Notes: generated by a model not told the origin, from the letters alone. Positions 3,956 to 40,684 are shown, counted from the first letter of the stretch. The stretch is 64,000 nt of DNA from an uncultured Candidatus Saccharibacteria bacterium (GCA_963553085.1 CAUVLR010000001.1:5342-69341); one strand, 5' to 3'. Made by a program: numbers and translations.

Positions 3956-4106
3956 GTCTTATATGGTAGCAAATGAGTAGCTTTATTTGTGAGATAAGGG
4001 CGAGAATATCGCCCGCCGGCATATTGCGTCCCGCCTAATCGCCTGATATATTGTTAGCATAAGGTTATTAGGTTAACTGAAAATAAAAACAAGCGGAGGT
4101 AAAAAG

Positions 4107-7100
4107 ATGAAAGTTGTTGACCGGGTCAGTAAGATCAGACCTATTAAGTCGTGGTGTGGTCTGAAGCAAGCCCTCACCGCCACCACGCTAGCTCTCTTCA
4201 GCGTGCTATTGATGACCAGCCCGGTGATAGCTGTCTGCCAGAGAGACATCACCGGCAAACAGACCGGCCAGCCGGTCAGCGAGGATCACACCAGCAATGT
4301 CATCCAGCTGATTCATCTGGCTCACACCGCCAATACATTTAACACCGAGTATGGTGCGTATAGCAATAAAGATAGCAACTATGCCGGTACGACCATCGCC
4401 CTACTCAGGAACGGCAAGGTGTACAGCTGGGGCAACAATATCTATGGTGGCGTTGGCAACAATACCACTTGTACTATGACCAGCAACGTTTACCTCAAAC
4501 GGCCACCCTGCTACTATAACCAGCCACAAGATATCACTAAATATTTCGGCAACGACAAGGTGGCCAAGCTAGCTAACCGTAGCCAACGAGCTATCGCTAT
4601 CACCGAGTCGGGCAAGATATACCGCTGGGGACAACCTCCGCTAGACGAAGATGGAAAGGATATAATCAGACACCCCACTCAATATCAGGAACTAGCTCCT
4701 TACCATATCATCGGCTATAGCGGGACCGACCGCGGAGGTCCGGGGACTGTCGGTGGAGGTTGGTATGCTTACAGCGACGACACTATCTTTGACATAAGCG
4801 ACGACAAAGTAAGCATGATCAAGCCTCAGCTGAACGGAGCCACTATCAGATCAGTCGACTGTGTTTGGCGCACAAAGGAGTTCCAGCCTGACAATCCGGA
4901 TAAAGACGAGGGTGGTCTCTATGTACTCACTTCCACCAATAAGCTCCTCAGAGTTCAGGACGACGGCAAGACGACCGAAATAACCAACTCTGAAATAGCC
5001 AAGCGAGGCGGATTTAAGCAGATCTATCATTACTACGCCATCGACCATCAAGGTGGACTCTGGCTCTATGGTCATCCCAAATACGAAGGTGAGTCTACTC
5101 TAGTCGACATGCATCCTAGGCTGGTCGGCTCGATCGGCACCAATCTACCGGCGTTGCAAGAGTTCGTTAACTCTAACGGCGTAGAAATCTCTTCATCTAC
5201 TAAGCGAGACCCTATTGTCCGAGGTGTCGACAATCATTTCTACTATCTGGCCACCTACTACACCAATGAATCAAGACTAATGCTCAATCCTATCGATATC
5301 ACCGCCAGTACTAAACACCAGAATATCAGACTGTTTCATGGTGATGCAGGTGCCGTGAATGACAAGACGCCACTAGAGATAGCGACAGACTACAGCAATC
5401 AATTATTCTATGATTACTCCTTCATCCCCGAGGGCAGCGATACTGACCTAGTCTGTACTACCGCTGAAGGTTTGTCGATGCACCATGAGATTATAGGCGA
5501 AGATCCTTCCCTCAATCTCACCCCGACCCTCCCCTTACGCCAGCAACCGAAACAAGATAAAACCGGCGACACTGCTCCGACCTGTGTCAAGATACCTTCT
5601 GATAAACCGAAGCCGGATCCGATCAAACCGCCCACGCCTAATACACCTAATCAGCCCAAGCTGCCCGGCGTACCTAATACCGGACTAAGAGACGACAAGG
5701 TCGTTCAGCTGGTTCACTCACCCGCCACATTTGACTACTATGGCGAGCAGAAGCATGGTATGGGCACCTGGCGAGACCAAGACTACGCCGGCACGACTGT
5801 CGTGCTGACCGAAAGCGGCAAGCTGTATGCCTGGGGTAATAACATTGCGGGCGGAGTCGGTAACGGCACCGGCTACGGTGCGACGTCTAACAAGAAGCCG
5901 CCCGTCTACTACAGTGACCCCCAGGATATCACCAGATTCTTTAACGGCGACAAGATCGTCAAGCTGGTAAATCACCGCCATGCGTTTGCAGCCATCACCA
6001 GCTCCGGCAAAGTATACTACTGGGGACACGGACTGTTCGATAAAGACAGGAAACCCATCATACATCCGGTCACACTGAGCGAGCTGTCACCCTATCACAT
6101 CATTGGCTTCGGTAGAGACATAGATCCCGGCAACTATAACGGCTCCTCTTCCTATGTAGCTAGTCATCCTGACAACATGAGTGATTGTCTTGCCTTTAGC
6201 AAGGATACCATCTTTGTTCTAGATTGTTACAGGTATACAAGCCGGCTCCAGTACCACGACGAGGCAAAGAACCGGATCAAGCCACAGCTCAGTAGTGGCG
6301 CCACTATCCTCGACGTCGATCACATCACGCGTCGCACCCCCACAGCAGAAGAGCCCGAGCCGGATAAGGGAGGCTACTACGCCCTAACCTCCGATCACAA
6401 GTTGCTGAGGGTGCTGGAAGACGGTACCACCAGCGAGATAACCAACTCGGAGATCAAAAAGCGAGGCGGGTTCAAACAATTATCTTATGCCGGTCATTAT
6501 GCCATCGACAGACAGGGTGGTCTATGGTACTACGGCTACCGAGAGGGCAATGACTCTATCCACGATATGGCAAAGATATCAACTAGTGGTAAATTACCTC
6601 ACCTAGATAGCTTCTTTAATGTTCTCGGACCAGTCGCCCGTGGTGCCGATGGAGCGATCTACGCCATAACTGACACGCACATCAATAGCCCCAATCAGTA
6701 CTTCGTGGGCAGGAGCGTTGACCCGATAGACGTCGGCACCCTGCTCGGCGGTAAGCAGAAGATTAAGCTCCTCAGTGGCGAGGTAGAGACAAGGTACCGG
6801 GGAGATTCAGGCTATACTAATGACTACTACCCTCCCAAAGATCTTCCCTTCTATGACTTCGCCTTCGTGCCACAGAGTCAGCCTGATACTGTCTGTGTCG
6901 GGCTGAGTGGCGCCGCCTACAACCGAATCCATGGCGAGAATAGAGGTCCTCTATTTGAGACCATCCAGCCGGTCGATGGCACACTACCATCCACCTGCGT
7001 CAAACTGCCACCGTGGAATGACGGCAAGTCAAACCCGTCACCCGTACCCGGCGCACCCACTACGTCCAAAGCGCCCGGTGTACCTAATACCGGCAGCCAG

Positions 7101-8657
7101 CCTGACCCGATCATTCAGCTAGTCCATATCCCGGCTGTTATTAACGGGGCAATTAATGGAAACTCTGAAAATCTCACAGCTAAGGATACCGACTACGCCG
7201 GCACGGTCATGGTGCTGACTCAGAGTGGCAGAGTATTTGCTTGGGGCAATAACTACGCCGGCAGTGTCGGCGTTGGTACTGCCGGGTTTAAAGTTCCCTA
7301 CCCCGAATCCGTTAAGAGCCGGCGAGAGGGTCATCCCGAATATTACGATACACCTCAGGAGATCACTAAATACTTTGGCGACGATAAAGTGGTCAGGATC
7401 GGACGCTACGGTCGTACTAGCGTCGCCGTTACCCAGTCGGGCAAGCTCTATCAGTGGGGCTGGAGCCACAACCAGCCCTGGGATTGGTACGACCGACTCG
7501 AGAATATAACTTGGACGGAGCCCACTCCCGACCCCACCCCATCCCTCGATAAGGTCACCGGTATAGGTGGGAGTTATGGTGATATCTATTCCGGTGGAGG
7601 TTGGCTGGCTCATGGCGACGACACCATCTTCACTAAGACTAGCACTAGCCAGCTGAAGGACTTTGGAGACAAGCTAAAGCTATCGCTTAATGGCGCCACC
7701 ATTAGGTCAGTCGACTACGTTGATTTCAACGGCAGGATAGCACAGAACCCTCAACTAGGTATCGACCAGTCCTTTAAGACGGGAGTCTATATCCTCACCT
7801 CGACCAATAAATTGCTCCGAGTTAAAAATGATGGTACTACCACCGAAGTAACCAACGACAAGATTAAGAGTCGAGGTGGCATCAGACAGATCGCTAATCA
7901 GTATGCCATCGACAACCAGGGTGGACTGTGGTACTACGGCGTCGGCATGAGTAAAGACCAAATTTACGATATGTCGCTCAAGACGCTAGGTGGCATCACA
8001 CCTCTACCTCGGCTAAGAGACATCGTCGGTGTCGATCTAATTGAGGATTTACACATGCTTAAAGATGGCTGGCAAAGACCCTGGTCATCTAGTGTACTAG
8101 TCCGCAGCATCGACGGACATATCTACGATGTATCACCGGTTCAAACCAAGTTTTCCACCGAAGACGGTGGCTACCCCGAGCGACGCTTCGCCCTAACCGA
8201 TGTGACCAAACTACTCGGTCACGATAAGATCAAACTCTTCGACGGCAAGATCCACAGCACAGGAGACACTAAGCCGGTAGATAATGAGGCGCCCGGACTA
8301 TACGGCTACTCTTACGTCCCGGAGTCGAAGCTAGATACCGTCTGCACTGTTATCAGTGGTGTAGCTAGCGCCAACGCCAGTCAAGCTCAATCACTCTATG
8401 GTCATGGTCATCCGCTGAATGTTAGCGTCACCACTACCAAGCTAGTTAACGACGCCTTCGCTCCGACCTGCGTCAAGTTGCCGCCCTTACTCACACCGGA
8501 CCCCAAACCCGGCCCAACACCAAATCCGAAGCCGACGAAACCGACTAGCGGTATCAAGGCGCCCTTTGACCGGCCCAAAGCACCCGGTGTACCTAATACC
8601 GGTAGTGAGCCACTCTTTATGAGCGTACACCGAGCACCAATCTTCGCTCGGCGCTGA
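4107..8657 (+). CDS. Secreted or surface protein made of three tandem RCC1-like propeller modules, each ending in P-N-T-G
   Basis: 1516 aa with an N-terminal signal or anchor segment. RCC1-type blades are present (GKVYSWGNNIYGGVGN, GKLYAWGNNIAGGVGN, GRVFAWGNNYAGSVG). Modules span about aa 60-526, 527-996 and 997-1499. GGAGG Shine-Dalgarno before the ATG. Confidence 0.75.
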   Translation: MKVVDRVSKIRPIKSWCGLKQALTATTLALFSVLLMTSPVIAVCQRDITGKQTGQPVSEDHTSNVIQLIHLAHTANTFNTEYGAYSNKDSNYAGTTIALLRNGKVYSWGNNIYGGVGNNTTCTMTSNVYLKRPPCYYNQPQDITKYFGNDKVAKLANRSQRAIAITESGKIYRWGQPPLDEDGKDIIRHPTQYQELAPYHIIGYSGTDRGGPGTVGGGWYAYSDDTIFDISDDKVSMIKPQLNGATIRSVDCVWRTKEFQPDNPDKDEGGLYVLTSTNKLLRVQDDGKTTEITNSEIAKRGGFKQIYHYYAIDHQGGLWLYGHPKYEGESTLVDMHPRLVGSIGTNLPALQEFVNSNGVEISSSTKRDPIVRGVDNHFYYLATYYTNESRLMLNPIDITASTKHQNIRLFHGDAGAVNDKTPLEIATDYSNQLFYDYSFIPEGSDTDLVCTTAEGLSMHHEIIGEDPSLNLTPTLPLRQQPKQDKTGDTAPTCVKIPSDKPKPDPIKPPTPNTPNQPKLPGVPNTGLRDDKVVQLVHSPATFDYYGEQKHGMGTWRDQDYAGTTVVLTESGKLYAWGNNIAGGVGNGTGYGATSNKKPPVYYSDPQDITRFFNGDKIVKLVNHRHAFAAITSSGKVYYWGHGLFDKDRKPIIHPVTLSELSPYHIIGFGRDIDPGNYNGSSSYVASHPDNMSDCLAFSKDTIFVLDCYRYTSRLQYHDEAKNRIKPQLSSGATILDVDHITRRTPTAEEPEPDKGGYYALTSDHKLLRVLEDGTTSEITNSEIKKRGGFKQLSYAGHYAIDRQGGLWYYGYREGNDSIHDMAKISTSGKLPHLDSFFNVLGPVARGADGAIYAITDTHINSPNQYFVGRSVDPIDVGTLLGGKQKIKLLSGEVETRYRGDSGYTNDYYPPKDLPFYDFAFVPQSQPDTVCVGLSGAAYNRIHGENRGPLFETIQPVDGTLPSTCVKLPPWNDGKSNPSPVPGAPTTSKAPGVPNTGSQPDPIIQLVHIPAVINGAINGNSENLTAKDTDYAGTVMVLTQSGRVFAWGNNYAGSVGVGTAGFKVPYPESVKSRREGHPEYYDTPQEITKYFGDDKVVRIGRYGRTSVAVTQSGKLYQWGWSHNQPWDWYDRLENITWTEPTPDPTPSLDKVTGIGGSYGDIYSGGGWLAHGDDTIFTKTSTSQLKDFGDKLKLSLNGATIRSVDYVDFNGRIAQNPQLGIDQSFKTGVYILTSTNKLLRVKNDGTTTEVTNDKIKSRGGIRQIANQYAIDNQGGLWYYGVGMSKDQIYDMSLKTLGGITPLPRLRDIVGVDLIEDLHMLKDGWQRPWSSSVLVRSIDGHIYDVSPVQTKFSTEDGGYPERRFALTDVTKLLGHDKIKLFDGKIHSTGDTKPVDNEAPGLYGYSYVPESKLDTVCTVISGVASANASQAQSLYGHGHPLNVSVTTTKLVNDAFAPTCVKLPPLLTPDPKPGPTPNPKPTKPTSGIKAPFDRPKAPGVPNTGSEPLFMSVHRAPIFARR

Positions 8658-14083: not shown

Positions 14084-14157
14084 TGGTGCGGGTGCAGAGA
14101 GTCGAACTCTGGTTCCAACCTTGGGAAGGTTATGTATTACCGCTATACGACACCCGC
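14084..14157 (-). tRNA. tRNA-Gly (CCC)
   Basis: Manual cloverleaf: GCGGGTG acceptor, anticodon loop TTCCCAA, T loop TTCGACT, encoded CCA. Confidence 0.9.
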
Positions 14158-14176
14158 ATATTAGAGTCCAAAGTAC

Positions 14177-14253
14177 TGGAGCCACCTCGGAGATTCGAAC
14201 TCCGGACCCCCGCTTTACGAAAGCGATGCTCTAGCCAACTGAGCCAAGGTGGC
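14177..14253 (-). tRNA. tRNA-Thr (CGT)
   Basis: Manual cloverleaf: GCCACCT/AGGTGGC acceptor, anticodon loop TTCGTAA, T loop TTCGAAT, encoded CCA. Confidence 0.9.
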
Positions 14254-14323
14254 ACGCCTTAGTATATTATACCATGTGAGTTGCAAAAGCCGATGGGTTT
14301 TGCTACTATACGCCTAGAGTTTT

Positions 14324-14401
14324 GCGCCTGTAGTGAAGCTGGTCCATCACGCCTCCCTGTCACGGAGGAGATCGCCGGTTCGAATCCGGTCGGGCGCGCC
14401 A
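14324..14401 (+). tRNA. tRNA-Asp (GTC)
   Basis: Manual cloverleaf: GCGCCTG/CGGGCGC acceptor, anticodon loop CTGTCAC, discriminator G, encoded CCA. Confidence 0.9.
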
Positions 14402-14453
14402 TGAGTAAGACCCTAAATAGATCTCATCAACCTAAGGTTACTCTAGAGCATGG

Positions 14454-14487
14454 TTAGTCGGTTACGCTTTGTAACCGACTAATTTTC
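14454..14487 (+). terminator. Terminator hairpin after tRNA-Asp, overlapping the stop codon of the convergent CDS
   Basis: TTAGTCGGTTAC-GCTTT-GTAACCGACTAA followed by TTTTC. Confidence 0.6.
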
Positions 14488-15588
14488 TTTGCTAGCAAAG
14501 CTACTGTCGCTCGGCACATTGATATATTCTTTGATCACCCCTCGCTGCCGTAGCTTAGCGAAGTCCTGATCCAGCTTGGTCAGCTTGACCATGACCAGCT
14601 GGTAGGTCATTTCTTTCTTGTTCTTATTTATCAGCTTGGCAATGTAGTAGTAGTCCGAGCTATCCAGGCAGACTTTCTGTACGCTGGTCGTCTGACCCGG
14701 CTCCAGTCGCTGGATTAGCTTGACCATACCGGTCGGATCTCGACCGGCTAGACTAACCGTCCGGTTGACGTTTGCCCCCGCTGCATCATCGTCGCTCATA
14801 TCCTTAGCCACCTGGGCGAAATCCACCCCCGATTCGATCAGGCGCTTAGCCTTATCGATCTTAGACTTGGCTTGTTGGTCTATCAGGTACGACAGCTTTT
14901 GACTGAGCATCTGGTCTTTAATCGTCGCCCGATAATCATCCAGCGTCCAGCCGTAGAAGCTCTGGAGTGTATCCGTCAGGTCGTCTTTGGTTGCTCCGTC
15001 AGCCTCTCGCATCGACTTGATCTTAGCGTCGACCTCACTGTCCGATACGCTCACGCCGGATTGCCCGGCCAACCACTCCACGTAGGCAGCTTTCTCGGTC
15101 ACCTGTAGGTCCTTCCGCTTGAGATAAGCCAACTCCTTACTACCCTCCTTGCTATTGAACGAACGTCGCTCTCGATTAATGTAATAAGAAATGTCTGCTC
15201 GCAGACGACGCAAGTAGTCTTGGTAGCGCACCGGGTGGCCATCGACCGAAGCGACACTTAGTGGCAAGACCTTGGTGACATTGTAGTAAAAGTTGCTAGT
15301 TTGCTGCTGCCGATAGAGTGCATTTTGAAGCCAAAGCCCGAAGCCGGTGGCGGCGACGATGGCCAGTATCACAGTGACGACCAGCAGACGCTTCTTAGAG
15401 TACTGTACCGGATACTTGAGCCGGCGACCCCGAGCTAAGATACTCTGCCGATGCTCATCGATATTATCACTGGTAATGCGCACCGGCGACAAGCTAGCTC
15501 GACGGCGGAACAGCTTCGCTCTTAGCTTGCCGCCCAAGCGTCGCTCCTTGCCTGGCGAATCATTTATTTGTTCATTACTCTTACTCAT
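14479..15588 (-). CDS. Membrane-anchored SurA/PrsA-like chaperone (PPIase-like)
   Basis: 369 aa with an N-terminal TM segment and a SurA-N-like helical region. The parvulin-like C-terminal part is a weak match. Confidence 0.45.
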   Translation of the reverse strand: MSKSNEQINDSPGKERRLGGKLRAKLFRRRASLSPVRITSDNIDEHRQSILARGRRLKYPVQYSKKRLLVVTVILAIVAATGFGLWLQNALYRQQQTSNFYYNVTKVLPLSVASVDGHPVRYQDYLRRLRADISYYINRERRSFNSKEGSKELAYLKRKDLQVTEKAAYVEWLAGQSGVSVSDSEVDAKIKSMREADGATKDDLTDTLQSFYGWTLDDYRATIKDQMLSQKLSYLIDQQAKSKIDKAKRLIESGVDFAQVAKDMSDDDAAGANVNRTVSLAGRDPTGMVKLIQRLEPGQTTSVQKVCLDSSDYYYIAKLINKNKKEMTYQLVMVKLTKLDQDFAKLRQRGVIKEYINVPSDSSFASKEN

Positions 15589-16097
15589 CAGTTCTCTTCC
15601 TGGGCAGATGCTCCCCGGTGACTACGTTGCACCGCCCGATTAAGCCTACCGCAAATTTGTTCACAGCTAGCAATCTTAGTCATGACCATATCACCGGCCA
15701 TAGTCTGGAGGATGATCGTACCATAGCCCGCCATGCTGCCTCGTAGCCCGTCGATATTATACTGGATATTCTCTACTTTAGCCAAATTAATATCGGTAGT
15801 GGTCTTGTGGAATAACCCTCGCTGAATCTGCTGACGGATCCGCTGACTGGTCACGATATTGACGCTATAGTACCAGCTCAGCCAGGCACCAAAGATCTTG
15901 AGCAGTCCAACTACGACCAAGCCAAGCGCTACATACCAGCTCCACGAATATTGACTCCACTGCATCAATACGCCTCCGCCGACCGCCAGCAAAGCTATGC
16001 CCGGCCAGCTCGACTCCAGCATCACCGAATAATGCCGGCGAAAGACGAAGTCAACCTGCTCGCCTGCTTGCTGCCCAACGAAGCTCTGCTTTACCAT
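15588..16097 (-). CDS. Membrane protein with bacterial PH domain (bPH_2/YdbT-like)
   Basis: Two TM segments followed by YSVNIVTSQRIRQQ...GTIILQT, the bPH_2 pattern. Start taken at ATG 16097 (MVKQSF). Confidence 0.55.
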   Translation of the reverse strand: MVKQSFVGQQAGEQVDFVFRRHYSVMLESSWPGIALLAVGGGVLMQWSQYSWSWYVALGLVVVGLLKIFGAWLSWYYSVNIVTSQRIRQQIQRGLFHKTTTDINLAKVENIQYNIDGLRGSMAGYGTIILQTMAGDMVMTKIASCEQICGRLNRAVQRSHRGASAQEEN

Positions 16098-16103
16098 GCC
16101 TAT

Positions 16104-16112
16104 ATTATAGCA
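16104..16112 (-). promoter_or_regulatory. Extended -10 box TGCTATAAT, 6 nt upstream of the ATG at 16097
   Basis: Read directly on the minus strand. Confidence 0.5.
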
Positions 16113-16230
16113 AAATGACGTTGCTTCTACCTGAATGACCATTGACACGCCGCACCATAAAGCCATAGGCAAACAGCAAGCCAGCTACACCCGCTACCCC
16201 GGTGTAAGTACGTATATGTCCAATAATTCC

Positions 16231-16306
16231 TGGTAGCCCAGATACGAGTCGAACGTACAACCTTCTCCTTAGGACGGAGCTGCTCTATCCATTGAGCTAC
16301 TGAGCC
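16231..16306 (-). tRNA. tRNA-Arg (CCT)
   Basis: Manual cloverleaf: GGCTCAG/CTGGGCT acceptor with two G.U pairs, D arm GCTC/GAGC, anticodon loop GTCCTAA, T loop TTCGACT, encoded CCA. Confidence 0.8.
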
Positions 16307-16371: not shown

Positions 16372-17700
16372 TCAGTGCTTTTTGATACTGTGAAAGAAGT
16401 TATTCAGTAGATAGAAGGGTACGTCATATAGATTGTCCGTTTTCTTGTAGTTCGCTACCGATGAGCGGACTGCCAGACGTGGTTGATACTTATTCATATA
16501 CACCGCCAAGCTCTTAGCTCGCAGATTCGTACCGCTCTTGACCTCGACCGGCACGATCTGACTGCCAGTCTGGACGATGAACTCGACTTCGGCTCGTGAT
16601 TGCCCATCCATCGCCCAATAGCAGACATCCAGACCACCATCGACTTGCAATTCTTGCAGAGCTAACTGCTCGGCCAACGATCCCCGAAACTCAGTAAAGA
16701 CTTGGTTGCCTTCCAGCAAGACTTGCTCGTCTAGACGTACCATAGCTGCTAACAGCCCGACGTCTAGATGGTATAGCTTAAAGGCACTCGCATTGGCATA
16801 CGACATGATCGGTATCCGGGGAGGTTCCAGCCGATTTATCCGACGCACCAGCCCCGCTTCTTCCAACCATGCCAGTGCCAATTCATATTCCTTTGCCCTT
16901 GCTCCCGCACGAATCATGCCAAAAACAAATTTGGCATTTTTCTTGGCTAGCTGACTTGGGATGATACGCCAGACCTGCTCGATCCTTCTCGCAAAAGATG
17001 CTTCGGGGGTATGCTTGCTAAAGTCATTAGCATAATCAAACAAGATATTATCCTGGATCCGTCGCACTTCATTCCACGATCTCTGCTCAACATAGCTAGC
17101 CACCACCTCAGGCATTCCGCCGACATAACAATAGGTCTTGATATAATCGATCAGTCTATCATGAAAAGGCGCCAGTAATTCTTGATCCATCGACGTAGAC
17201 GTGATCATCTCGACCAGATGCTTCTCGCCTAAGGCCAGTAGAAACTCCCGAAATGACAAAGGCGCCAGCTCTAGGTAGTCCACTTTGCCGACCGGGAAGG
17301 ACGTACCTTGATGAGTGGCTACACCCAGTAGACTACCAGCTACGACAATATGGTACTGAGGGGCATTTTCGCAAAAGTACTTTAGCGCCGTGAGCGCCTT
17401 GGGTACTTCCTGGATCTCATCCAGCACGATCAAGGTGTTATCGGGCTCAATGTCCACGTTCGTCTCAGCTTTCAGGCTCTGGATTAATCGGTTAACGTCA
17501 AAATCTCCGTCAAAGAGTGCCGCCATGCGGGAATTGTTATCCAGGTTGACGTACGCCGTCTGCCGGTACTGAGTCCTGCCGAACTCTCTGATCAGTTCTG
17601 TCTTGCCTACTTGGCGAGCACCTCGAACGATCAGTGGTTTACGGTGTAGGCTCTTCTGCCAAGCCTTCAGGTCTTCAATCTTTTGACGATACATGTACAT
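16372..17700 (-). CDS. AAA-family ATPase with DUF4143-type C-terminal domain
   Basis: 442 aa. KPLIVRGARQVGKTELIREF Walker A and LIVLDEIQ Walker B, the general architecture of AAA_14/DUF4143 proteins. Confidence 0.8.
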   Translation of the reverse strand: MYMYRQKIEDLKAWQKSLHRKPLIVRGARQVGKTELIREFGRTQYRQTAYVNLDNNSRMAALFDGDFDVNRLIQSLKAETNVDIEPDNTLIVLDEIQEVPKALTALKYFCENAPQYHIVVAGSLLGVATHQGTSFPVGKVDYLELAPLSFREFLLALGEKHLVEMITSTSMDQELLAPFHDRLIDYIKTYCYVGGMPEVVASYVEQRSWNEVRRIQDNILFDYANDFSKHTPEASFARRIEQVWRIIPSQLAKKNAKFVFGMIRAGARAKEYELALAWLEEAGLVRRINRLEPPRIPIMSYANASAFKLYHLDVGLLAAMVRLDEQVLLEGNQVFTEFRGSLAEQLALQELQVDGGLDVCYWAMDGQSRAEVEFIVQTGSQIVPVEVKSGTNLRAKSLAVYMNKYQPRLAVRSSVANYKKTDNLYDVPFYLLNNFFHSIKKH

Positions 17701-17743
17701 AATGACAACTTCCTCTCTTCTACTGCTAATTATGCCATGTTTT

Positions 17744-17830
17744 TACATTTTTTGTAAGGAACTTTTGGTGATTTACTACACTTTTTGTGACGAACTTTGG
17801 CGCTATCGCTACACTTTTTGTAAGGTACTT
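17744..17830 (-). promoter_or_regulatory. Three 21-nt direct repeats phased at exactly 33 bp upstream of the ATPase gene
   Basis: TACATTTTTTGTAAGGAACTT (17744-17764), TACACTTTTTGTGACGAACTT (17777-17797), TACACTTTTTGTAAGGTACTT (17810-17830). Confidence 0.6.
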
Positions 17831-17849
17831 CATGACTCACCCACACATA

Positions 17850-17912
17850 CTGTAATTTCCCCTTCACGCATAGCTCGAGTTGGTCCGAATAGCACAGGTG
17901 GTCTCCTCAGGC
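17850..17912 (-). repeat. Arm repeat, inverted solo copy (locus 3)
   Basis: CTGTAATTTCCCC...CACAGGTGGTCTCCTCAGGC, homologous to 877-939. Confidence 0.8.
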
Positions 17913-17935
17913 CTACTGCTTAGTCAGCCCTCATT

Positions 17936-18036
17936 CTTCATCTACATCATCATTTCCTTCAGACCCGCCTGGCTGGCTCGTGTGCTGCTGAGCTTCAAGC
18001 GCACACAGTCTTCAGGAAATGATCAGTAGAGTGAAG
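17936..18036 (+). repeat. hpB copy 3 (variant carrying compensatory substitutions)
   Basis: Apical stem is GTGTGC/GCACAC instead of GTGCAC/GTGCAC. Confidence 0.85.
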
Positions 18037-18082
18037 GACAAAAGACACCCTCTTATGTGCTAAGGGCTATCTAATACTTTAT

Positions 18083-18205
18083 ATGGGGGGCTGATAGATT
18101 CATCACATCAACCTCAGACCTGGCGCTCATAATGTACCACTGGCGATTGATTACTTGTAGGACATTGATTAGTCTTCGGTTGTCTGTGATGAATCCGCCC
18201 CCCAT
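18083..18205. repeat. palC: 123-nt palindromic insert, the only copy in the window
   Basis: ATGGGGGGC..GATTCATCACA pairs with TGTGATGAATC..GCCCCCCAT. Lies between hpB copy 3 and an elA fragment. Confidence 0.7.
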
Positions 18206-18219
18206 GAAAGCCTTCCTGC

Positions 18220-18275
18220 GGGTAAAGAGCAGTACTTGATGGTTAACGAAGACTGTTGATACGACAGTAAGCTAG
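18220..18275 (+). repeat. Degenerate fragment of the elA 5' arm
   Basis: GGTAAAGAGCAGTACTTGATGGTTAACGAAGACTGTTGATACGACAGTAAGCTAG aligns with the elA core GGTACGAGCAGTACAGTGTGGTTGACGAAGGCTGTTGATA..CAGTAAGCTAG. Confidence 0.65.
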
Positions 18276-18284
18276 ATGATACAC

Positions 18285-18488
18285 ACGTAATTTCCTCGGT
18301 CTCATTGCTTAGCCAACCTCAGTCTAAGGTAGACACTCCTGGTACGAGTAGTACAGTGTGGTTGACGAAGGCTGTTGATATAGCAGTAAGCTATCCAGTG
18401 CACGTGGTAGTTTATACGGTGCCAAGCCTGAGGAGACCACCTGTACTACTCGTACGAACCCGGATTATATGTGGAGGGAAATTACAGA
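18285..18488 (+). repeat. elA copy 3 (short form)
   Basis: Termini GTAATTTCCTC / GAGGGAAATTACAGA and conserved arms. Confidence 0.85.
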
Positions 18489-18560
18489 ATCTGCCTTGAA
18501 CCACTCCAGCCCATCGCTAAAAGTCCCTACATTCTTCATCTTGTGCGACATTAGGTAAAA

Positions 18561-18569
18561 TGCTAAAAT
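18561..18569 (+). promoter_or_regulatory. Extended -10 box TGCTAAAAT, 7 nt upstream of the xer ATG at 18577
   Basis: Read directly. Confidence 0.5.
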
Positions 18570-18576
18570 ACGCCTG

Positions 18577-19530
18577 ATGACCCATGACAAAGACGCTAAA
18601 AATGATGAATTTTACCTCGCCGACCTGATCATGGACTTCGTCGAGTACATCGAAATAGAGCGAGGCCGATCCATCCGCACCGCCGAGAACTACAACCTGT
18701 ACATGGACCGACTGGTCGAATTCGCCGGCAACATCCCCGTCAGCCAAATCACCGACGAGCTGGTCAGAAAATATCGTCTGTGGCTGAACCGCTTCGTCGA
18801 CGAACAAGGGCGTGAGCTCTCGCTCATCACCCAGAGTTATCATCTGATCGCTCTGCGGAGCTTTCTCAAATATTGCTCGCAGCGAGACATCCCCACCCTG
18901 GATGCCAGCCGGGTCAACCTACCCCGCACTCAGAAGAAACAGGTCTCCTTCCTACTGGCGGAAGAGGTGGCTCGGCTATTCGACGCCATTCCGCTTGACC
19001 AACCTAGCGGACTGCGAGACCGAGCCATCATCGAGCTGCTCTTCTCGGGTGGCATGCGAGTCAGCGAGCTATGTAGCATCAATTGCAACCAGCTCAACCT
19101 GGATCGGCGAGAATTCACCGTCAGGGGCAAGGGTGGTAAAGACCGCCCCATCTTCATCAGTCAATCAGCCGCTGATACGATCGAGCGATATCTGCAGACT
19201 AGGTCGGACGGGCTCAAGCCGCTCTTTCTCAATAACTCTCGCAATATCGTCGAGAGTGATGACGTCGACCTCAGCGAAGCTCGCCGTCTGACTCCCCGCT
19301 CGATCCAGCGAATCGTCAGTAAATATGCTCAAGCAGCTGGCATCACCAAGCATGTCACTCCCCACACTCTGCGCCACTCTTTCGCTACCGACCTGCTGAT
19401 GAATGGCGCCGACCTGCGCTCGGTCCAGTCGATGCTGGGGCACAGCAATATCGCCACCACCCAGATCTACACTCACGTGACCGACCCTCATCTCAAGGAA
19501 GTACACGACAAATTTCAGAGCAACCTGTAA
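18577..19530 (+). CDS. xerC: Tyrosine site-specific recombinase, XerC/XerD family
   Basis: 317 aa. SAM-like N-terminal domain, [38 protein letters not shown] (R-H-R-Y catalytic pattern). Confidence 0.9.
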
Positions 19531-19610: not shown

Positions 19611-20894
19611 TTACTTACACCTGTCTTCACCCGTGTCGTACTGTACTTCTATGTCTTTACAGACTTTACCGTTAGTATCGATGACATACTCCGGCCACCA
19701 GTTCGTACTGTCGGCATTCTTGTCAAAGCTAGGCTTGAGCCGAGCCTGAATCCGACTAAAGGAATCAGATGATCTACCGGTCACATCAACCAGTGGCTGA
19801 ACGCCGTCGAAGTAGAGCTTGTTCTTGCCCTGGTATGCCGTGATCTTGAAGTGAGTACTACGATAGATGGCATTGATACGCAGATAATATGTTTTATCAG
19901 TATAAAGTGACTCTTTATTGAATATCGTTTTACAGGCATACTCTTTATTACTGCCGCTTTGACAATATGCTTCTACGATCGGCACACCCTTATGATATTG
20001 AGAGTTTGGCGCAATCTTATCCTTGTTACTAGATGGGTATTGAGGCTGGTAGTTACCCAAACGATAACCGCCCTTACCATTACCGCTCTCCGACGGACGC
20101 AGAGTCAGAGCGGTGTCGCTACCTGTCAGGTCGTTCAAATTAAAGCCACCTTTAGGCACACCAACTCGCTCGACCCGAAGGACTGCCGGTCGGTTGCTGC
20201 TATTCCAAGTAGTGGTCGTAGGTAGACCGGTGCCATTAGCGCCATTCATGTCAGCCGGGTTATCACCATCGTTGCCGGTAACGTTGCGGTGCCACTCGAT
20301 CTCTAGTCTATCAATGACGGCGGCTTGGTTATTTGCGTCCACTACCCTGAGCGGTACGATGACCGACTTGCCCAAGTTATTCACTATCCCCTGGTAGTTG
20401 TCAGTCTTAGTGGCGATCTTTAGACACTGATAATATTCGTTATTCTCGTTTTTGCCGCCACTATTATCACCGACTCTAACTCGGTAGCCTCTACCATTAT
20501 CCTCTTTTTCGACCTTGAAGTTGCTTGATTGCGTGATATCTACTTGCTCAAGTATCTTGTCACAGTCCCTACCCTCCAACTCGGTTGAAAGTTTACCAAT
20601 CACCTCAGAGCATAAATTTTTATCAGCCTGGCTAGCATAGTCACCACTCGCTTGGCGCTTGTTATAACAGTAGACGATCAAGCGCTTAGCATCCTCAACG
20701 CCCGACTCAGCCGCAATCTTAGCTGACGACTGGAGAGAGTCATTTAGCGCCTGGCGAGACGCTGAGATGACCACGAAGGTGAAGCTGACGGCGATCGCCG
20801 CAAAGAGCATCATAAACATAGCCACGGTCACCATCGAAGCTTGGCCCGACTCACGATCACCCGGTCGACACCGAGATACTAAGCGAGAAATCAT
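19611..20894 (-). CDS. PilX-like pilus assembly protein (last gene of the minor-pilin operon)
   Basis: 427 aa. N-terminal hydrophobic helix [22 protein letters not shown] resembles PilX_N. Start overlaps the upstream stop (ATGA). Confidence 0.5.
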
Positions 20895-21628
20895 ATCTTA
20901 CTCCTTTCGTAAACAGTGAAGGTATACTTGGCAAATGAGCAATATTGGTTCTTAGCCGGGGTGAATGTGTCTGTCGAGTCAACTATTCCGTTATCATTTT
21001 TATCTATCCACTCACCACATTGCCAATAAGAGTTGGGGTTATTCTGACTGGCATCAATATGAACGATTCCGGTGTTATCGGTATAAGCTTTGATCGGTCG
21101 GTTCGCCCCCTCGGTCGAGACTACTACGCTGATGGTTAGCAGAGGCGCATCAGTCTTTTGCTCCACTTTGAACTCCTGGATCGTTGCTCCTCGCCCCAAC
21201 AAGATATGAACATTGGAATCGGCGCTCGGCAGCCCCGGCTGCTTCTTAGGGTTGCTGCAGTATTCACCTTTCGGGTCGTCGATCCGAGCCAGCCGGATCG
21301 GCGTCCCATCAAGATAGACATTATCCTTCTCGTTATGGTCATCAATATCCTGCTGCGTATTCCACAGGTAAGACACACCGTTGATGCACATCCGACGATT
21401 GACAGTATCTACCGTCGCTGCCGGGCTGTAGCGAGCCTTATCACCGATATCGCTATTCATCTGCTGACCGGCTTGGTTGATCTGAGCCAGCCAGATGCCT
21501 TTATTATACGAACGGACGATATTGACCGTAGTAGCAGCCAAGATGAAGATGATGAAGCCAACGAAGATCAGAGCCGTCGACACCTCGATCAAGGTAAAAC
21601 CGCTCTGTTTGTCTGATAGTCTAGCCAT
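20891..21628 (-). CDS. Minor type IV pilin with prepilin-type N-terminal cleavage/methylation domain
   Basis: KQSGFTLIEVSTALIFVGFIIFIL. Confidence 0.75.
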   Translation of the reverse strand: MARLSDKQSGFTLIEVSTALIFVGFIIFILAATTVNIVRSYNKGIWLAQINQAGQQMNSDIGDKARYSPAATVDTVNRRMCINGVSYLWNTQQDIDDHNEKDNVYLDGTPIRLARIDDPKGEYCSNPKKQPGLPSADSNVHILLGRGATIQEFKVEQKTDAPLLTISVVVSTEGANRPIKAYTDNTGIVHIDASQNNPNSYWQCGEWIDKNDNGIVDSTDTFTPAKNQYCSFAKYTFTVYERSKI

Positions 21629-21655
21629 GTCTTATCCTTTCCTATCCTTCACTAC

Positions 21656-22264
21656 TTACTTATAGTACACCCGTACGTTAGATTCCATTCGCCCTGAGCC
21701 CGGCTGTTGCGCCGCATGTGGTGTCCAGCAAGCCCGAACGTAGAAGTCGATATAGCCGGGCATATCGCCCTGCCCATCGTGCTTGTCACCCTCGATCCAG
21801 ATACCTCGGCTATCTTCATTACCATTACCATTTTTACTACCCGCTGCTTCCGGCTGTCCGTAGACGTTATTCGTCAGATCAGTGGTTTTTGCCGGATTAA
21901 GCTTATGTATTTCTACCGGCGATGTACCGCCACCCACACTCAGGTAGAAGCCGCCATTACCAATCTCGCAGCCATTTTGACCAAGCTTTCCATTTGGCTG
22001 AGTATACTTATTAATGATCTTATCGTAAGTATCCTTATTGGTGACCGGATCGTCAAAGACGTAGCGCAGTAGCTCCGCCTGGCTACTCAGGCTAGCTCGC
22101 ACCGAAGTCCGCTCGACCGCATTTGACACCCCCATCAATCCCCGATTAATGACCGCCAGGCTAGCCGCCAGCATTAGCCCCAGCACCGCCATCGCCACAG
22201 TCACCTCGACTAATGTGTCGCCCCGTTCTGCTTGATTTCTCTTCATCCTTGCCCTCATCATCAT
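21656..22264 (-). CDS. Pilin-like protein with a divergent prepilin signal
   Basis: ERGDTLVEVTVAMAVLGLMLAASL. Confidence 0.6.
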   Translation of the reverse strand: MMMRARMKRNQAERGDTLVEVTVAMAVLGLMLAASLAVINRGLMGVSNAVERTSVRASLSSQAELLRYVFDDPVTNKDTYDKIINKYTQPNGKLGQNGCEIGNGGFYLSVGGGTSPVEIHKLNPAKTTDLTNNVYGQPEAAGSKNGNGNEDSRGIWIEGDKHDGQGDMPGYIDFYVRACWTPHAAQQPGSGRMESNVRVYYK

Positions 22265-23196
22265 TATTGATCCAAATTACTACACGCCTCGGCTACATCT
22301 TTGGGCCCCACATTGTTCACCCCGCCGTCCCAGTTCCAGTTACCGCCCGCTACGTTAAAGTTGTTTGACGTACCCGCCGGGTTATCACCGCCGGGTATAC
22401 AGATGACACCGCCGGGGTAGCCTAGGCCGCTATTGCGTACCGCCAATACTACTTTGTCATCTTGCGACATATTAGCCTTAGCTACATTTAGGTTTATTTG
22501 CTTCAGACCATTAACCGGCGCATTGGGCACGTTATCTAAGACCACCGCCGGGACGACCACCAATGAACCGTCGACCGGACTGCGCATGATGGCAATATTG
22601 TTGGTTTGATTAGGATTCGGATTGCTGGGATCAGAATCATATAGACTCATATTAGTATTGCCAATCAGCCAAACCTTCTCCAATTTATTGCTGCCTATTT
22701 GCTTGATCGTAGGGTTAAGACCGGCGTCATTCCCGCTAGTATCAGTCAAGGCATATAGCGTCACATTACTGTCCTTACTGTCCTTCAGGTTATCAAAACC
22801 CGTCTTGGTGCTGTCCGGCCACTTAGAGCCCGTCCCCACCACAGCAATGATAAAGCTGACTTGGACACGACCGACCTCGCCGTCATTATCAAAGGTCAAC
22901 AGACGCCCAATAATGTAGCAGTCGTTGTTATTGCCGGGGATAGCCGTATTCTTACACTCTGATACGGGCCCCATCTTGTTAGTGCTCACATCACCCTCAG
23001 TCAGGCGAGAATTGATGCCGGAGCGAACCTCGTTATACTGCTGCTTGATGAAAGACTGGGTAGTGACCAGCGAATCACGGAAGCGACCTCGCCCGACCAT
23101 AGCCGCCAAGCCAAAGGTCAGTAAGACCAGTGTCGCCGACATGGCGATGGCTAGCCCGGTCTCAAGTACGGTATATCCACCCTCTCGCTTCATCAA
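22264..23196 (-). CDS. Pilin-like protein with a divergent prepilin signal
   Basis: REGGYTVLETGLAIAMSATLVLL. Coupled to its neighbours by overlapping stop and start codons. Confidence 0.6.
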   Translation of the reverse strand: MMKREGGYTVLETGLAIAMSATLVLLTFGLAAMVGRGRFRDSLVTTQSFIKQQYNEVRSGINSRLTEGDVSTNKMGPVSECKNTAIPGNNNDCYIIGRLLTFDNDGEVGRVQVSFIIAVVGTGSKWPDSTKTGFDNLKDSKDSNVTLYALTDTSGNDAGLNPTIKQIGSNKLEKVWLIGNTNMSLYDSDPSNPNPNQTNNIAIMRSPVDGSLVVVPAVVLDNVPNAPVNGLKQINLNVAKANMSQDDKVVLAVRNSGLGYPGGVICIPGGDNPAGTSNNFNVAGGNWNWDGGVNNVGPKDVAEACSNLDQ

Positions 23197-26100
23197 TACC
23201 TCACCGGCAGATTAGTTACTTGCGTCGTGGTTAAACCTTCCAGCTGGTTGCCGGACGAGCCATTAGAGGTGGTCAGCCAGAGGTTGGGCGTGTAATTGAT
23301 CCACTCGGCAGTCGAGGAAATCCTATCGGTCTTCCACTGATTATCCTCCTGTAGATTACCTGCCCCGAAGGTACGACGGAAGATCGGTGAATTCTCAGAG
23401 ACGATAGCGCCATTGACCTTGAGCTTGTGCTGGCATTTACTATTCGGTAGCATACCTAAGTCAGCTGGATTCTTAGCATCCTTGCAACTCTCGAAGTGAT
23501 CCTTCGCTACATAAGTACCGGTAATGAGACTTACTCCAGGATTAACTTTAATGTTCTTAGCCATGATGGTGAAGCTGGGAATATCAGACAGATTAGCGTA
23601 AGGACCGGCATAAGCATCGATCTTACCGGTAATAGTGACATCAGCCTGCTCAGCAAAGATAGTAATGTGTGTACCTTTGCCCAGATCGCCATGTATCTTT
23701 AGAGACCCACTGCCGGCTTTATAATTACCACTTTGCAAACCACCTAGATCAACGTTTGATCCACCTGATAATGGCGTAGTGTTAGTTGAGCTAGGCATGG
23801 ACAGAGACTTCTTTAGGAGGCCGGCTGGCTTAAGCCACTTCAGATCGTTACAATCACCCTGGGCTTTATCCGTATTAGCATAGCTAAGCTTACAGGCTAG
23901 ACTGCGGTATTTGTCATACGCTGTGGTATAGCCGGCTGAGCCAAAGTTGACCACGCCGTCCGTGTCGCCGGTCAGCAACCCATACTGCGAGTAGGAGCCT
24001 CGCTTATCAGTGCCGGGGACCTTATCACTCTTGCTGACACTAGCACCTTGGAAGCCCTTATTAGCATAGCTATCTGAGCCGGATAGGTTAAGGTTGGGAC
24101 TCTTCGTCACCACAGCACAAGCAATGTTGCTAGCTCGGAAAGTATCAGCTGACTGGTCATTCCTCACACTCCAATTATTGTCAACAGCGATGTAAGAGCA
24201 GATCTTATCGCCGGGCTGAGCCAGCCAGCCACTACCGTATATGCCATACGACTTAGACCGCATGTTACTACCGCCGACATTAAGGACAACGTCCTCATCA
24301 TCTCTACCAGTGTCCCAACCGACGCAAGGATCAATTTGGCCACTCCAATATTGCCCACCTAAGCTACGACCACCTCTACAGCTAACGCCCTTGCCGTCCC
24401 AGAACTCAGGATATGTCGGACGATCATCTTTGTCTGCGGGCAACGATGCCCCTCTCTTCAGAATAAAGGTATAATTGTGATACCGGAACGGTCTCGTCTT
24501 AGTCGGACCGGTAGGGTTCTCTACCATGTAGTCGAAAGTAACCGTGTCGCCCGCTTGAACTTTATCCTGTTTAGCTATGGTGGTTGGTACGATACCACTA
24601 CTCTTATCTTTGGGTCCATCATCCGGCGGCGGAGGATAGTGATAAGGAATATAGACACAAGCCTTAGGAGTTAAGCGTTGTTTCCAGCCGTTGTATTCCC
24701 AGCTCATCCGCAACCACTGACAGAGAGTCTGTCCCGCATCACCCGGCTTAACCACATAGCGATAATGTCTGGTTACCGCCTCTCCTTCTGATATCCGCCG
24801 ATTAAACGATAAAACATTATCATAACACTCTCCACCCCAGTCATAGCACCCCCACATTATTTGCCGATGGTCGCTACCGTTAAGTGGACCGCCTCGATCG
24901 GCAGGTCGAAACCAATTGGATCCCTCCTCCGGCTTCGGCTCAGTCTGATTCCAGCTCTGACCAAGTGGGCGAGGGTCTATCCAACCTTCACGAAGGTTAG
25001 TAAAGTCCATTTTCATTTCTTCGGGGACTATATAACCGCTAGAGTTATAAGCTCGGAACCACCAAGTCAGCTCATCACCCGGGTAGAGTTCAGCTTTATG
25101 GTGGTTATTATCCATGACAGCTTTCGGAAGGCTTCCTTTAACGTGTGGATAGTTGCCCGTCCAAGTCCAGAGTGTATTAGGTGTATTAGGTTTATTAGCA
25201 CCAAGATAGCCCATGACCTCAGCTATACTTTTGTCATTTTCTTTGCTGTTATACTTGCCATACGAAGAAAGCCACTTGTAGCCGGTCCTCGGTTTTTTAG
25301 AATCGCCAGTGGGCTTCTTTGTGAAATCAACGGTGGTGCGCATATCAACTTTTGGCTCGCAGGTAATGTTGTAAAAGATGTTGTCAAAAGGCAGCTCATA
25401 CTCAATCAAGTTATTTTTCCAGACATTGTCGATGACAATCTTATATTTATGATCTGGATACATCATCATTTCCACGTATAAGACCCCGTTTTCACCCATG
25501 CAGCCATGACTACCGTACACACCATCATCACCTGCACCGAGCTGACCGCACTGGTACTTAGGGTCGTTTCCATCATAGTAAGCTACTCTCCTGCCATTAT
25601 CTGACTCATCATATACACTAACACTAAGAGGCTGCTTACCATTATTGGTACCCCACCAGGGATACCAGGTATCCAGATCATAAAGTCTCAAGTGATAAGG
25701 CGAACCCGGTCCTCCGAGATGGGTCGGCTCGGTAAAGCTACAAGGTAATGCCATCTGCATTTCCTTCCGCTCATGCCCGATAATATCCCCCATTCTGTCG
25801 TTATACCGAATGCTAGCCTGCGACGCCCTACCGGTCGCATAGGCAATAATACCGTCACTCCTATCTAATTGCAGCTTAAACTGAAACAAACTGCCTATTA
25901 AGGAGGCACGTATCCTAGCCTTCCAGTAGCCAGTTGAACTATCATACCAAAAATCTCCAGTGTTGACAGTAAAATGACCATCACCGTAAATACGAGCTCC
26001 ACCATTAAATACAGCACCAGAGCTCCAATCACCGGGACTTCTGTGTATGTCAAAAACTTTCACCCCTACGTCACTATCGGGTTTATCCTTAAAATACACC

Positions 26101-27186: not shown

Positions 27187-27885
27187 ATGAGCAATAAAAG
27201 CGAGATCAAGAGACTACGTGAGAGCCTCGGGCTCAGCCAGCAACATATGGCTGATACGCTGGGTATGAGCCGTCCCTCTTACGACAAGGTAGAGGCAGGG
27301 ACAAAGGAGCTCACCGTCGCCGAAGCCCGCAAGCTATCTGACGAGCTGGGAGCCAGCTTTGATGTCATCTTCATGAATAGCGAGCCAAGTGTCAGCTACG
27401 ACAAGGAGCGCTATAAAGAGATGATTCGTCGGTTCATCAGGTACGCCGGCGCAAATAGCGATGACAGAATCCCGAAGACAAAATTAGCCAAGCTACTCTA
27501 TCTCCTGGATTTCTCGTGGTATTACGACAATCTGGAGTCTGTAAGTGGGCTGCAGTACCGCAGGATTGCACAAGGTCCGGTACCGGACGAGTTCTTTCGC
27601 ACTGTCGAAGAGATGTATGATACGGAAGAGATCGATATCAAGCTCCGAGGCAGAGCAATGATGATCAGTCTGAACGAAGAGCTCGACCCGGCGAATGAGC
27701 ACCTCCTCTCCGACGAGCAAGACAAGCGGCTCAGAGAAATAGCAGCCCAATGGAAGACAGCCAACACACGAGCGATAGTTGACTATACCCACAGCCAGCT
27801 GCCATGGAAGTACTGCGAGCCAAATGAATTAATCCCATACGATGCCATAGTCCAGGAGGATCCCGACCATGTCTACCGGCGGTAG
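27187..27885 (+). CDS. XRE-family HTH fused to a Panacea (DUF4065/SocA-like) domain; putative antitoxin
   Basis: The N-terminal region RLRESLGLSQQHMADTLGMSRPSYDKVEAG is an HTH. The central region KLAKLLYLLDFSWYY...AQGPVPDEF matches the DUF4065 pattern. Confidence 0.7.
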   Translation: MSNKSEIKRLRESLGLSQQHMADTLGMSRPSYDKVEAGTKELTVAEARKLSDELGASFDVIFMNSEPSVSYDKERYKEMIRRFIRYAGANSDDRIPKTKLAKLLYLLDFSWYYDNLESVSGLQYRRIAQGPVPDEFFRTVEEMYDTEEIDIKLRGRAMMISLNEELDPANEHLLSDEQDKRLREIAAQWKTANTRAIVDYTHSQLPWKYCEPNELIPYDAIVQEDPDHVYRR

Positions 27886-38809: not shown

Positions 38810-38815
38810 AAGCAC

Positions 38816-38824
38816 ATTATAGCA
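38816..38824 (-). promoter_or_regulatory. Extended -10 box TGCTATAAT, 6 nt upstream of the ATG at 38809
   Basis: Read directly. Confidence 0.5.
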
Positions 38825-38825
38825 G

Positions 38826-40678: not shown

Positions 40679-40684
40679 CGGTCT

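Follow-up and report, generated by a model that had tools for sequence, protein, structure and literature searches.

Predicted secreted RCC1-like propeller modules with a conserved PNTG stalk end form strain-variable arrays in the Candidatus Nanoperiomorbus clade of Saccharibacteria

The RCC1-like domain (RLD) propellers (PF00415, PF13540 and PF25390), which include UVR8, the HERC2 RLDs, RCC1 and RPGR, are the closest described relatives of a protein module encoded in a 64,000 nucleotide (nt) stretch of DNA from an uncultured Candidatus Saccharibacteria bacterium (GCA_963553085.1, CAUVLR010000001.1:5342-69341), the whole of which is referred to here as the window. Three copies of the module are found in tandem in a 1,516 amino acid (aa) protein (large gene; 4107-8657, + strand), while a single copy forms a 516 aa protein (stand-alone gene; 59298-60848, + strand). 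The modules share RCC1 and RCC1_2 matches, the predicted fold and a GKxYxWGNN-type blade signature with the RLD propellers. However, the module comprises ~440 structured residues as opposed to the ~370 of a typical RLD, and its recognizable RCC1 sequence is restricted to blades 1-2. It further differs in being predicted to be secreted and probably disulfide-locked, in carrying a proline-rich stalk that ends in the motif PNTG, and in forming an interchangeable cassette that is confined to one bacterial clade. A secreted RCC1-like seven-bladed propeller, BLIP-II, is found in Streptomyces, where it acts as a tight β-lactamase binder, but it consists of a single domain, lacks a stalk and PNTG motif and is not known to be hypervariable. 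BLIP-II is absent from the sequence and fold matches listed in this study, and the analogy is a functional one only, that of a bacterial secreted RCC1-like propeller acting as a protein binder.

In Gram-positive surface proteins of variable repeat number, such as the alpha C/Rib family and Aap/SasG, and in other cassette-type variable surface antigens, whole in-frame units are gained and lost by recombination between repeats, resulting in size polymorphism at a conserved locus. The large gene is similar in both its gain and loss of units and its size polymorphism. Whereas the repeats of the alpha C/Rib and Aap/SasG proteins are short and near-identical, the units of the large gene are whole propeller domains, ~40% identical, which belong to distinct, recombined classes.

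A further comparison can be made with LPXTG sorting signals, including those of two actinobacterial RCC1 'cell wall anchor proteins' (P0025 and P0026), which carry a genuine LPITG motif followed by a membrane span and an RRGR anchor. The order of domain, proline-rich stalk and xPxTG motif, the near-invariant threonine with a small residue behind it and the disordered context of the motif are common to both. By contrast, the Saccharibacteria proteins have alanine or valine at the first motif position and no hydrophobic span, the single-module genes lack a charged tail, the motif is also found internally at every module junction, no sortase is encoded nearby and the motif was not seen on other protein families. 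Actinobacterial SrtA prefers LPxTG or LAxTG, and in vitro a soluble substrate that extends just one or a few residues past the glycine can be used by sortases. Finally, a donor-strand-exchange pilus system, Pam, has been described in bacteria from the Candidate Phyla Radiation (CPR) (10.64898/2026.03.03.709456). The RCC1 proteins of the window show no NCBIfam Pam match, and the C-terminal tail of the large protein is predicted to be disordered rather than docked.

RCC1-like propellers, proline-rich stalks and repeat-number variation are each already known. The clade-specific module, its ~40% identical interchangeable cassettes at a hypervariable Saccharibacteria locus and the anchor-less PNTG end appear to be undescribed: the homologs carry no annotation other than 'hypothetical protein', and literature searches returned nothing on them.

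Anatomy and predicted fold of the modules

The large protein consists of a signal peptide, three homologous modules of ~470-500 aa with 36-45% identity to one another and a 17 aa tail. Module 1 (M1; aa 60-526, 4284-5684), which was delimited by alignment, Pfam and module clustering and represents a rare first-position allele, 'alpha', contains the initial (V/I)xQL(V/I)H motif as VIQLIH at aa 65 and the TCVK(I/L/M)P segment as TCVKIP at aa 492, followed by the proline-rich stalk and PNTG at aa 523-526 (5673-5684). Module 2 (M2; aa 527-996, 5685-7094) belongs to class M2a on the basis of alignment, module clustering and BLASTP, with VVQLVH at aa 532, TCVKLPP at aa 963 and PNTG at aa 993-996 (7083-7094). 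Module 3 (aa 997-1499, 7095-8603) was assigned to class M3 by the same three approaches and a structural model, and combines IIQLVH at aa 1002, TCVKLPP at aa 1454 and a long proline-rich stalk with PNTG at aa 1496-1499 (8592-8603). The conserved tail, SEPLFMSVHRAPIFARR, and the stop codon occupy positions 8604-8657, as supported by tail comparison, homologs and the model. In the stand-alone protein, the module (59406-60848; AlphaFold2, alignment A1 and Foldseek) comprises a propeller at ~aa 41-483, with VVQLVHV at aa 48-54 and the TCVK segment starting at aa 473 (TCVKM, 472-476), and a disordered proline-rich stalk at aa 491-516. Its PNTG motif at aa 511-514 (60828-60839) is followed by the residues SQ and the stop codon.

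End-to-end alignment of the stand-alone protein with the three internal modules gives 39-45% amino acid identity, and the BLASTP scores lie far outside chance expectation (M1 against M3, E = 2e-72; stand-alone against M2, E = 2e-94). Both open reading frames (ORFs) run exactly as proposed in the initial annotation, and its description of a three-module protein with a single-module paralog, in which PNTG is retained at each module boundary, agrees with the motif positions, alignments and E-values. An assembly artefact as the source of the triple array was rejected, as the modules share just ~56-60% DNA identity and ~75 independent three-module homologs exist.

The proposed RCC1-like nature of the module is likewise borne out by Pfam matches above the family cutoffs and by structure prediction. 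Three Pfam matches were obtained in the large protein (RCC1_2: 74.8 bits, cutoff 22; RCC1: 40.9 bits, cutoff 21.7) and one in the stand-alone protein (RCC1_2: 31.8 bits; RCC1: 21.8 bits; same cutoffs), while the whole-domain model WD40_RLD scored 112 and 39.6 bits, respectively, under its 150-bit cutoff. The RCC1 sequence signal is confined to blades 1-2 (profile positions ~84-198), and the profile sequence matches to solved structures are RCC1-family proteins throughout, including HERC2, UVR8 and RCC1 chains. An AlphaFold2 model of the stand-alone protein, built on an alignment of family members, is a β-propeller of ~30 strands with moderate confidence (predicted local distance difference test, pLDDT: 71; predicted template modelling score, pTM: 0.74). 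The N-terminal strand (48-54) is confidently placed, the last ordered strands are formed by residues 472-476 and 480-483, and residues 491-516, which make up the stalk and PNTG motif, are disordered. When this model was compared against the PDB with Foldseek, the top 40+ matches were all RCC1-like propellers, led by UVR8, the HERC2 RLDs, RPGR and RCC1 (best E = 6e-12; TM-score normalised to target: 0.55-0.58). A second model spans module 3 together with the M2 stalk before it and the tail behind it. The propeller is reproduced (pLDDT: 61), and both stalks, both PNTG motifs and the 17 aa tail are disordered (pLDDT ~30). As such, each module is predicted to fold into a seven-bladed RCC1-like β-propeller, the ring of which would be closed by the xQLxH first strand and the TCVK last strand.

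Two cysteines of the stand-alone protein, Cys437 and Cys474 (DTVC...TCVK), are invariant in 12/12 sequences of alignment A1, which includes the three modules of the window and the stand-alone protein. A second pair (TTC...PPC; Cys116/Cys130 in the stand-alone protein) is present in full in M1 and the stand-alone protein and lacking in full from M2 and M3. The co-occurrence of the cysteines in pairs, together with the Sec-type signal peptides recognized by inspection, suggests that the proteins are extracellular. The pairs probably form disulfides, with Cys437-Cys474 stapling the first and last strands. The tail of the large protein was also considered as a donor or velcro strand on the propeller, but the likeness between SQPDPIIQLVHIP and the first strand of the module, SEPLFMSVHRAP, is weak and the tail is left disordered by AlphaFold2.

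Upstream of the large gene a strong Shine-Dalgarno sequence, GGAGG, can be read at positions 4095-4099 (+), 7 nt 5′ of the ATG, and the stand-alone gene is preceded by another strong site, AGGAGG, at positions 59286-59291 (+). The translated large protein begins with a predicted Sec signal peptide (aa 1-42; 4107-4232, +), in which a basic n-region precedes the hydrophobic core ALTATTLALFSVLLMTSPVIA and cleavage probably occurs after VIA. A similar signal peptide is predicted for the stand-alone protein (aa 1-36; 59298-59405, +), with cleavage after AIA. A lipoprotein signal in the large protein (VIAVC) was rejected, since the cysteine is not kept in the homologs P0014 and P0015.

Distribution and strain-variable cassettes of the two loci

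A scan of one genome per Genome Taxonomy Database (GTDB) species identified 175 relatives, all of which are Candidatus Saccharibacteria metagenome-assembled genomes or Ca. Nanoperiomorbus periodonticus (TM7 G5, HOT-356). Among named homologs, the large protein is closest to a 'hypothetical protein' from Ca. N. periodonticus (91% identity). When 1.84 billion representative proteins were searched with a profile, just ~9 entries matched the module in full, while the other ~20,900 matched only generic RCC1 blades, indicating that the full module is confined to a narrow clade of oral epibionts. The full module, unlike the RCC1 repeat, is thus restricted to the Ca. N. periodonticus clade. Public sequencing runs gave partial matches to the locus only (≤33% of sampled words).

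Across the related loci the flanking genes are highly conserved (97-99.6% protein identity; 93-97% DNA identity). By comparison, the stand-alone proteins share 41-97% amino acid identity (median: 64%) and the large proteins 49-64%. Among 62 distinct stand-alone alleles, the rate of synonymous substitution (dS) is 0.8-1.3 in mid-gene and 0.33-0.43 at both ends, while the ratio of non-synonymous to synonymous substitution (dN/dS), 0.27 overall, peaks at 0.52 in those blades that vary most. Variability peaks at alignment columns 181-220 and 361-440, and the stalk and PNTG motif are among the least variable parts, below most blades. The dS pattern, together with the lack of any dN/dS window above one, suggests that old, divergent alleles are exchanged by recombination through their conserved ends, rather than that a recent burst of positive selection took place.

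In eight related loci (L003, L004, L006, L007, L013, L016, L018 and L032) two tandem stand-alone RCC1 genes are present where the window has one. These copies are situated ~8.2-11.5 kb into the locus and both end in ...RAPNTG plus one or two residues.

To describe the arrays of the large gene, 90 homologs were cut at their junctions and the resulting modules clustered. Three first-position alleles, alpha (rare, and carried by the window), beta and gamma, are ~40% identical to one another. Modules further downstream fall into the classes M2a, M2b (which shares 70-75% identity with M2a) and M3. The gene of the window has the architecture alpha-M2a-M3. At least ten architectures with one, two or three modules can be distinguished; two misparsed beta-M3 entries were corrected in the counts given here. 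The most frequent is beta-M2a-M3 (45/90), followed by gamma-M2a-M2b (13/90), beta-M2b-M3 (11/90) and gamma-M2a-M3 (6/90), while alpha forms account for 5/90, two-module forms for ~10/90, and one homolog each has the reversed order beta-M3-M2b or a single module (P0112). Module number and order differ even between near-identical genomes, and in all homologs of the large-gene type (type A) the 17 aa tail is kept after the last module, whichever its class.

The first ~50 residues of M2a and M2b are nearly identical. In variants without M2a, M2b begins with ~20 residues of M2a type, which points to a crossover just past the junction, and in hybrid M2a/M2b modules a crossover is visible inside the first ~25 residues. 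Homologous recombination in the conserved ends and junctions would thus produce the observed alleles and combinations. An ancestor with four modules (first-M2a-M2b-M3) that underwent deletions is disfavoured, as none of the 90 homologs exceeds 1,524 aa and one has M3 ahead of M2b, both of which fit better with shuffling than with deletion alone. The initial annotation had interpreted the large gene as a whole-module triplication fused into one polypeptide. A tandem array of complete RCC1-like modules, predicted to be secreted, is indeed present, but it does not represent one fixed triplication: the triple-module form is one state of a recombining, strain-variable array of one to three modules.

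The PNTG motif and the proposed binding function

At the module ends VPNTG (199), APNTG (37), VPSTG (16) and APNTA (4) predominate, with single cases of APNTS, VPNTS, TPNTG and VPNAG and one internal junction reading VHNTG. P-[N/S]-T-[G/A/S] is thus kept at ~260 module ends. Among the complete stand-alone genes, 71/72 end in KRN[N/S]LR[A/S/T/V]PNT[G/A/S], one or two variable residues and the stop codon, while one ends in PNAGI. In all 72, the stop thus lies two or three residues past the fourth position of the motif, which is Thr in 71. A third gene type also keeps the motif (P0019 ends in PGVPNTGQ, P0259 in PGVPNTSL). Overall, the proline, asparagine or serine, and threonine hardly ever change, a small residue comes next and the sequence beyond it is free. 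Alignment A1 shows no variation at P, N and T, nor at residues of the fold core, and when modules are compared with one another the junction ranks with the most conserved 10-codon windows. PNTG is as strongly conserved as core motifs, YAIDxQGGLW for instance, yet sits in a segment predicted to be disordered, which suggests that something reads the motif. The survey of homologs that had been proposed for PNTG therefore returned a strongly conserved motif, contrary to the first of the refuting outcomes listed in the initial annotation.

The few exceptions, namely the internal junctions PGVHNTG and PGVPNAG of P0285 and P0317 (aa ~520) and the PNAGI end of the stand-alone gene of L053, could be tolerated mutations or sequencing errors. 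Another representative of the third gene type, P0021 (570 aa; Joint Genome Institute metagenome; compare P0019, P0115 and P0130), has its own signal peptide (MGKPNIVYHRLIKFGRGLAY...) and the ending PGVPNTGQ. It runs into rve-integrase sequence of an insertion sequence element, and this copy has apparently been disrupted by insertion.

We suggest, with a probability of about one half, that both proteins are strain-variable binding proteins, the large form being multivalent, which act at the interface between epibiont and host or toward another variable ligand, and that PNTG is a functional recognition site at the stalk end. According to this proposal, the products of both genes would be exported through Sec by the obligate epibiont Candidatus Nanoperiomorbus (oral Saccharibacteria, group G5) and act as binding proteins outside the cell. 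Their unit would be a self-closed seven-bladed RCC1-like propeller head, probably stapled by the invariant DTVC...TCVK cysteine pair and borne on a disordered proline-rich stalk of 25-45 residues that ends in [A/V]-P-[N/S]-T-[G/A/S]. The miaA-thrS locus would supply one to three different heads per polypeptide, always with the tail SEPLF...PIFARR, and the second locus single heads with a stop right past the motif. Recombination in the conserved ends and junctions would swap heads between strains with near-identical backbones. As differing head alleles and combinations are found on such backbones, the heads are taken to be the putative determinants of specificity when the surface of the bacterial host, or some other variable ligand, is contacted, and the multi-head form may be their multivalent, multi-specific version. 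PNTG, which is conserved like the core motifs, lies in a disordered region and is followed by variable residues past the threonine, would most likely be recognized by a partner or enzyme, for processing or attachment at or beside the threonine.

How the ultrasmall Saccharibacteria recognize and hold their hosts is little understood beyond type IV pili. Nanoperiomorbus genomes that are otherwise nearly identical vary most at the two RCC1 loci, and the propeller heads represent testable candidates for determinants of host range or strain specificity in a human oral epibiont. A strictly kept PNTG stalk end without a membrane anchor furthermore raises the question of a non-canonical processing or anchoring signal in minimal bacteria.

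Several points weigh against this proposal. The evidence for a binding or adhesin role comes from the fold, the secretion signals and the population-genetic pattern, and both AlphaFold2 models, built on shallow alignments, have moderate confidence only. No membrane span, lipobox or known wall-binding domain was found by Pfam and NCBIfam scans of the two proteins, and they could simply be released. Among the stand-alone alleles no dN/dS window exceeds one, and the low dS at the gene ends suggests that part of the C-terminal conservation among orthologs may reflect recombination with conserved flanks instead of constraint on the protein.

A less probable alternative is that the motif has no enzymatic role. 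PGVPNTG and the xQLVH strand would then represent a linker-propeller boundary, kept because any in-frame gain, loss or exchange of modules through homologous recombination has to regenerate it, and perhaps also through a structural role as stalk cap, and the protein would remain an uncleaved string of beads. The variation of module number and order in near-identical genomes, the crossovers within the junction-proximal ~25 residues, the nearly identical starts of M2a and M2b and the dS minima at the gene ends are all consistent with such a boundary, as is the finding that the M2-M3 junction and the last motif share 27/30 nucleotides. However, the motif is also kept at the C-terminus of the single-module genes, at another locus and in another context (LRAPNTG), where there is no junction to regenerate, as well as in the third gene type (P0019 and P0259), and a disordered segment normally drifts unless it is read by something. 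At PNTG, the identity of synonymous sites (0.67) exceeds the gene-wide average over invariant residues (0.45) only modestly and is matched by core fold motifs elsewhere in the gene. A DNA-level element at the junction was rejected on the grounds that codon identity at PNTG is unexceptional in this comparison.

The resemblance of PNTG to a sortase-type signal had been raised in the initial annotation, which noted that the hydrophobic segment and charged tail behind it are missing or very weak and put forward cleavage or polymerisation at the junctions as a hypothesis only, which it is here as well. Of the three sequence features of the LPXTG class, the hydrophobic segment is missing from all members (~160) and the charged tail from all stand-alone genes (72/72), and the conserved [A/V]P[N/S]T[G/A/S] would be a variant pentapeptide with A or V at position 1. 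PNTG is thus not a canonical sortase sorting signal. The stand-alone protein ends two residues and the large protein 17 residues past the last PNTG, and reading through either stop codon reveals no hydrophobic segment, in line with what had been noted. The tail of the large protein contains H, R, S and E and is neither long nor apolar enough to cross a membrane, its only charged end being a terminal RR, QR or RH. A recently truncated sorting signal in the stand-alone gene was also rejected: the frame past the stop contains further stops and no hydrophobic stretch, and the early stop is found in 72/72 genes.

That a sortase of the epibiont itself nevertheless cuts each [A/V]PNT|G and links the threonine carboxyl to the wall or another subunit, splitting the protein into anchored or polymerised heads of ~50 kDa, is unlikely. 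A domain, a proline-rich wall-spanning stalk and xPxTG in this order represent the classic layout of Gram-positive substrates, as exemplified by the LPITG-anchored RCC1 proteins P0025 and P0026, and the fixed proline, asparagine or serine and threonine, with a small next residue and free remainder, would suit cleavage after the threonine. The motif is furthermore predicted to lie in disordered, accessible sequence, and the stand-alone proteins end where a cut at the junction would leave the internal modules. Weighing against this are the absence of a hydrophobic segment in the ~160 members, the conserved ends of the stand-alone genes, one or two residues past the motif and without a charged tail, which do not derive from recent truncation, and the A or V, rather than L, at the first position of [A/V]P[N/S]T[G/A/S]. 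Neither a phmmer search with SrtA nor a scan for TLxTC, which covered 1.15 Mb of largely redundant related loci, identified a sortase-like ORF in the window or 75 related loci, and Pfam scans of 34 window proteins found no sortase. Similarly, no other ORF of the window or the related loci has a canonical sorting signal or a PxT[G/A/S] end, and a profile of stalk and motif retrieved only three fragments of the same family from 5.8 billion proteins, although this search has low power as the query is short and proline-rich. Published work reports sortases for one environmental TM7 genome (PMC3812714) and for over half of CPR genomes, but describes their distribution in the groups outside Microgenomates as patchy (PMC6744442).

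Rather less probable still is that P-[N/S]-T plus a small residue constitutes a new processing or transpeptidation signal free of any membrane anchor, by which a sortase-like or other enzyme, of the epibiont or its actinobacterial host, cuts a multi-head polyprotein at every junction and covalently fixes each strain-specific head to a cell wall, possibly that of the host. If true, the epibiont would thereby possess a means of attachment that is both covalent and combinatorially variable.

The scenario in which the housekeeping sortase of an actinobacterial host fixes the anchor-less heads covalently to the host wall is highly improbable: the tolerance of sortases for short ends past the glycine in vitro would allow it, and hypervariability suits a protein at the host interface, but A or V at the first position differs from the preference of SrtA, and the internal motifs of the multi-head form would also be cut, to no obvious purpose. 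The absence of a membrane-retention segment would make sense if the enzyme is not in the producer's membrane, and according to work cited within PMC11623550 it is Actinomycetota, in which sortases are essential, that are known as hosts of oral Saccharibacteria, but literature searches gave no precedent for this wholly speculative arrangement.

Other genes in the window

The stand-alone RCC1 gene is divergent from a gene on the opposite strand (56561-59194, -), encoding an 877 aa protein with an N-terminal membrane anchor. The latter is conserved at ~97% in most related genomes and at 51% in a few. Its sole match is to the NCBIfam Pam pilin C-terminal domain NF058581 (22 bits; cutoff: 55 bits), and as this sub-threshold match is all that connects the locus to the Pam pilus of CPR bacteria, that link was rejected.

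The remaining content of the window fits a small Saccharibacteria genome: besides the housekeeping genes miaA, thrS, RNase J, FtsK, polA and udg there are tRNAs, toxin-antitoxin genes and two clusters for type IV pili. The core type IV pilus cluster (37925-46566, -) comprises an A24 prepilin peptidase, a pilin and PilC/PilT/PilB-like and PilO/N/M genes. In a second region (19611-26303, -), a run of minor-pilin-like genes with N-methyl motifs ends in a 1,036 aa ORF without a Pfam or NCBIfam match, which is possibly a tip adhesin. Of the toxin-antitoxin-like genes, those at positions 27187-28279 (+) encode an HTH_3 and SocA/Panacea antitoxin-type protein followed by an overlapping 136 aa ORF without a family match, and that at 30330-30662 (-) encodes a PemK/MazF toxin. 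Finally, a group of tRNA genes (14084-16306) lies beside genes for an AAA_14/DUF4143 ATPase (16372-17700, -) and for a phage-integrase-family tyrosine recombinase (18577-19530, +), and the region 16372-19530 may represent a small mobile or integrative remnant.

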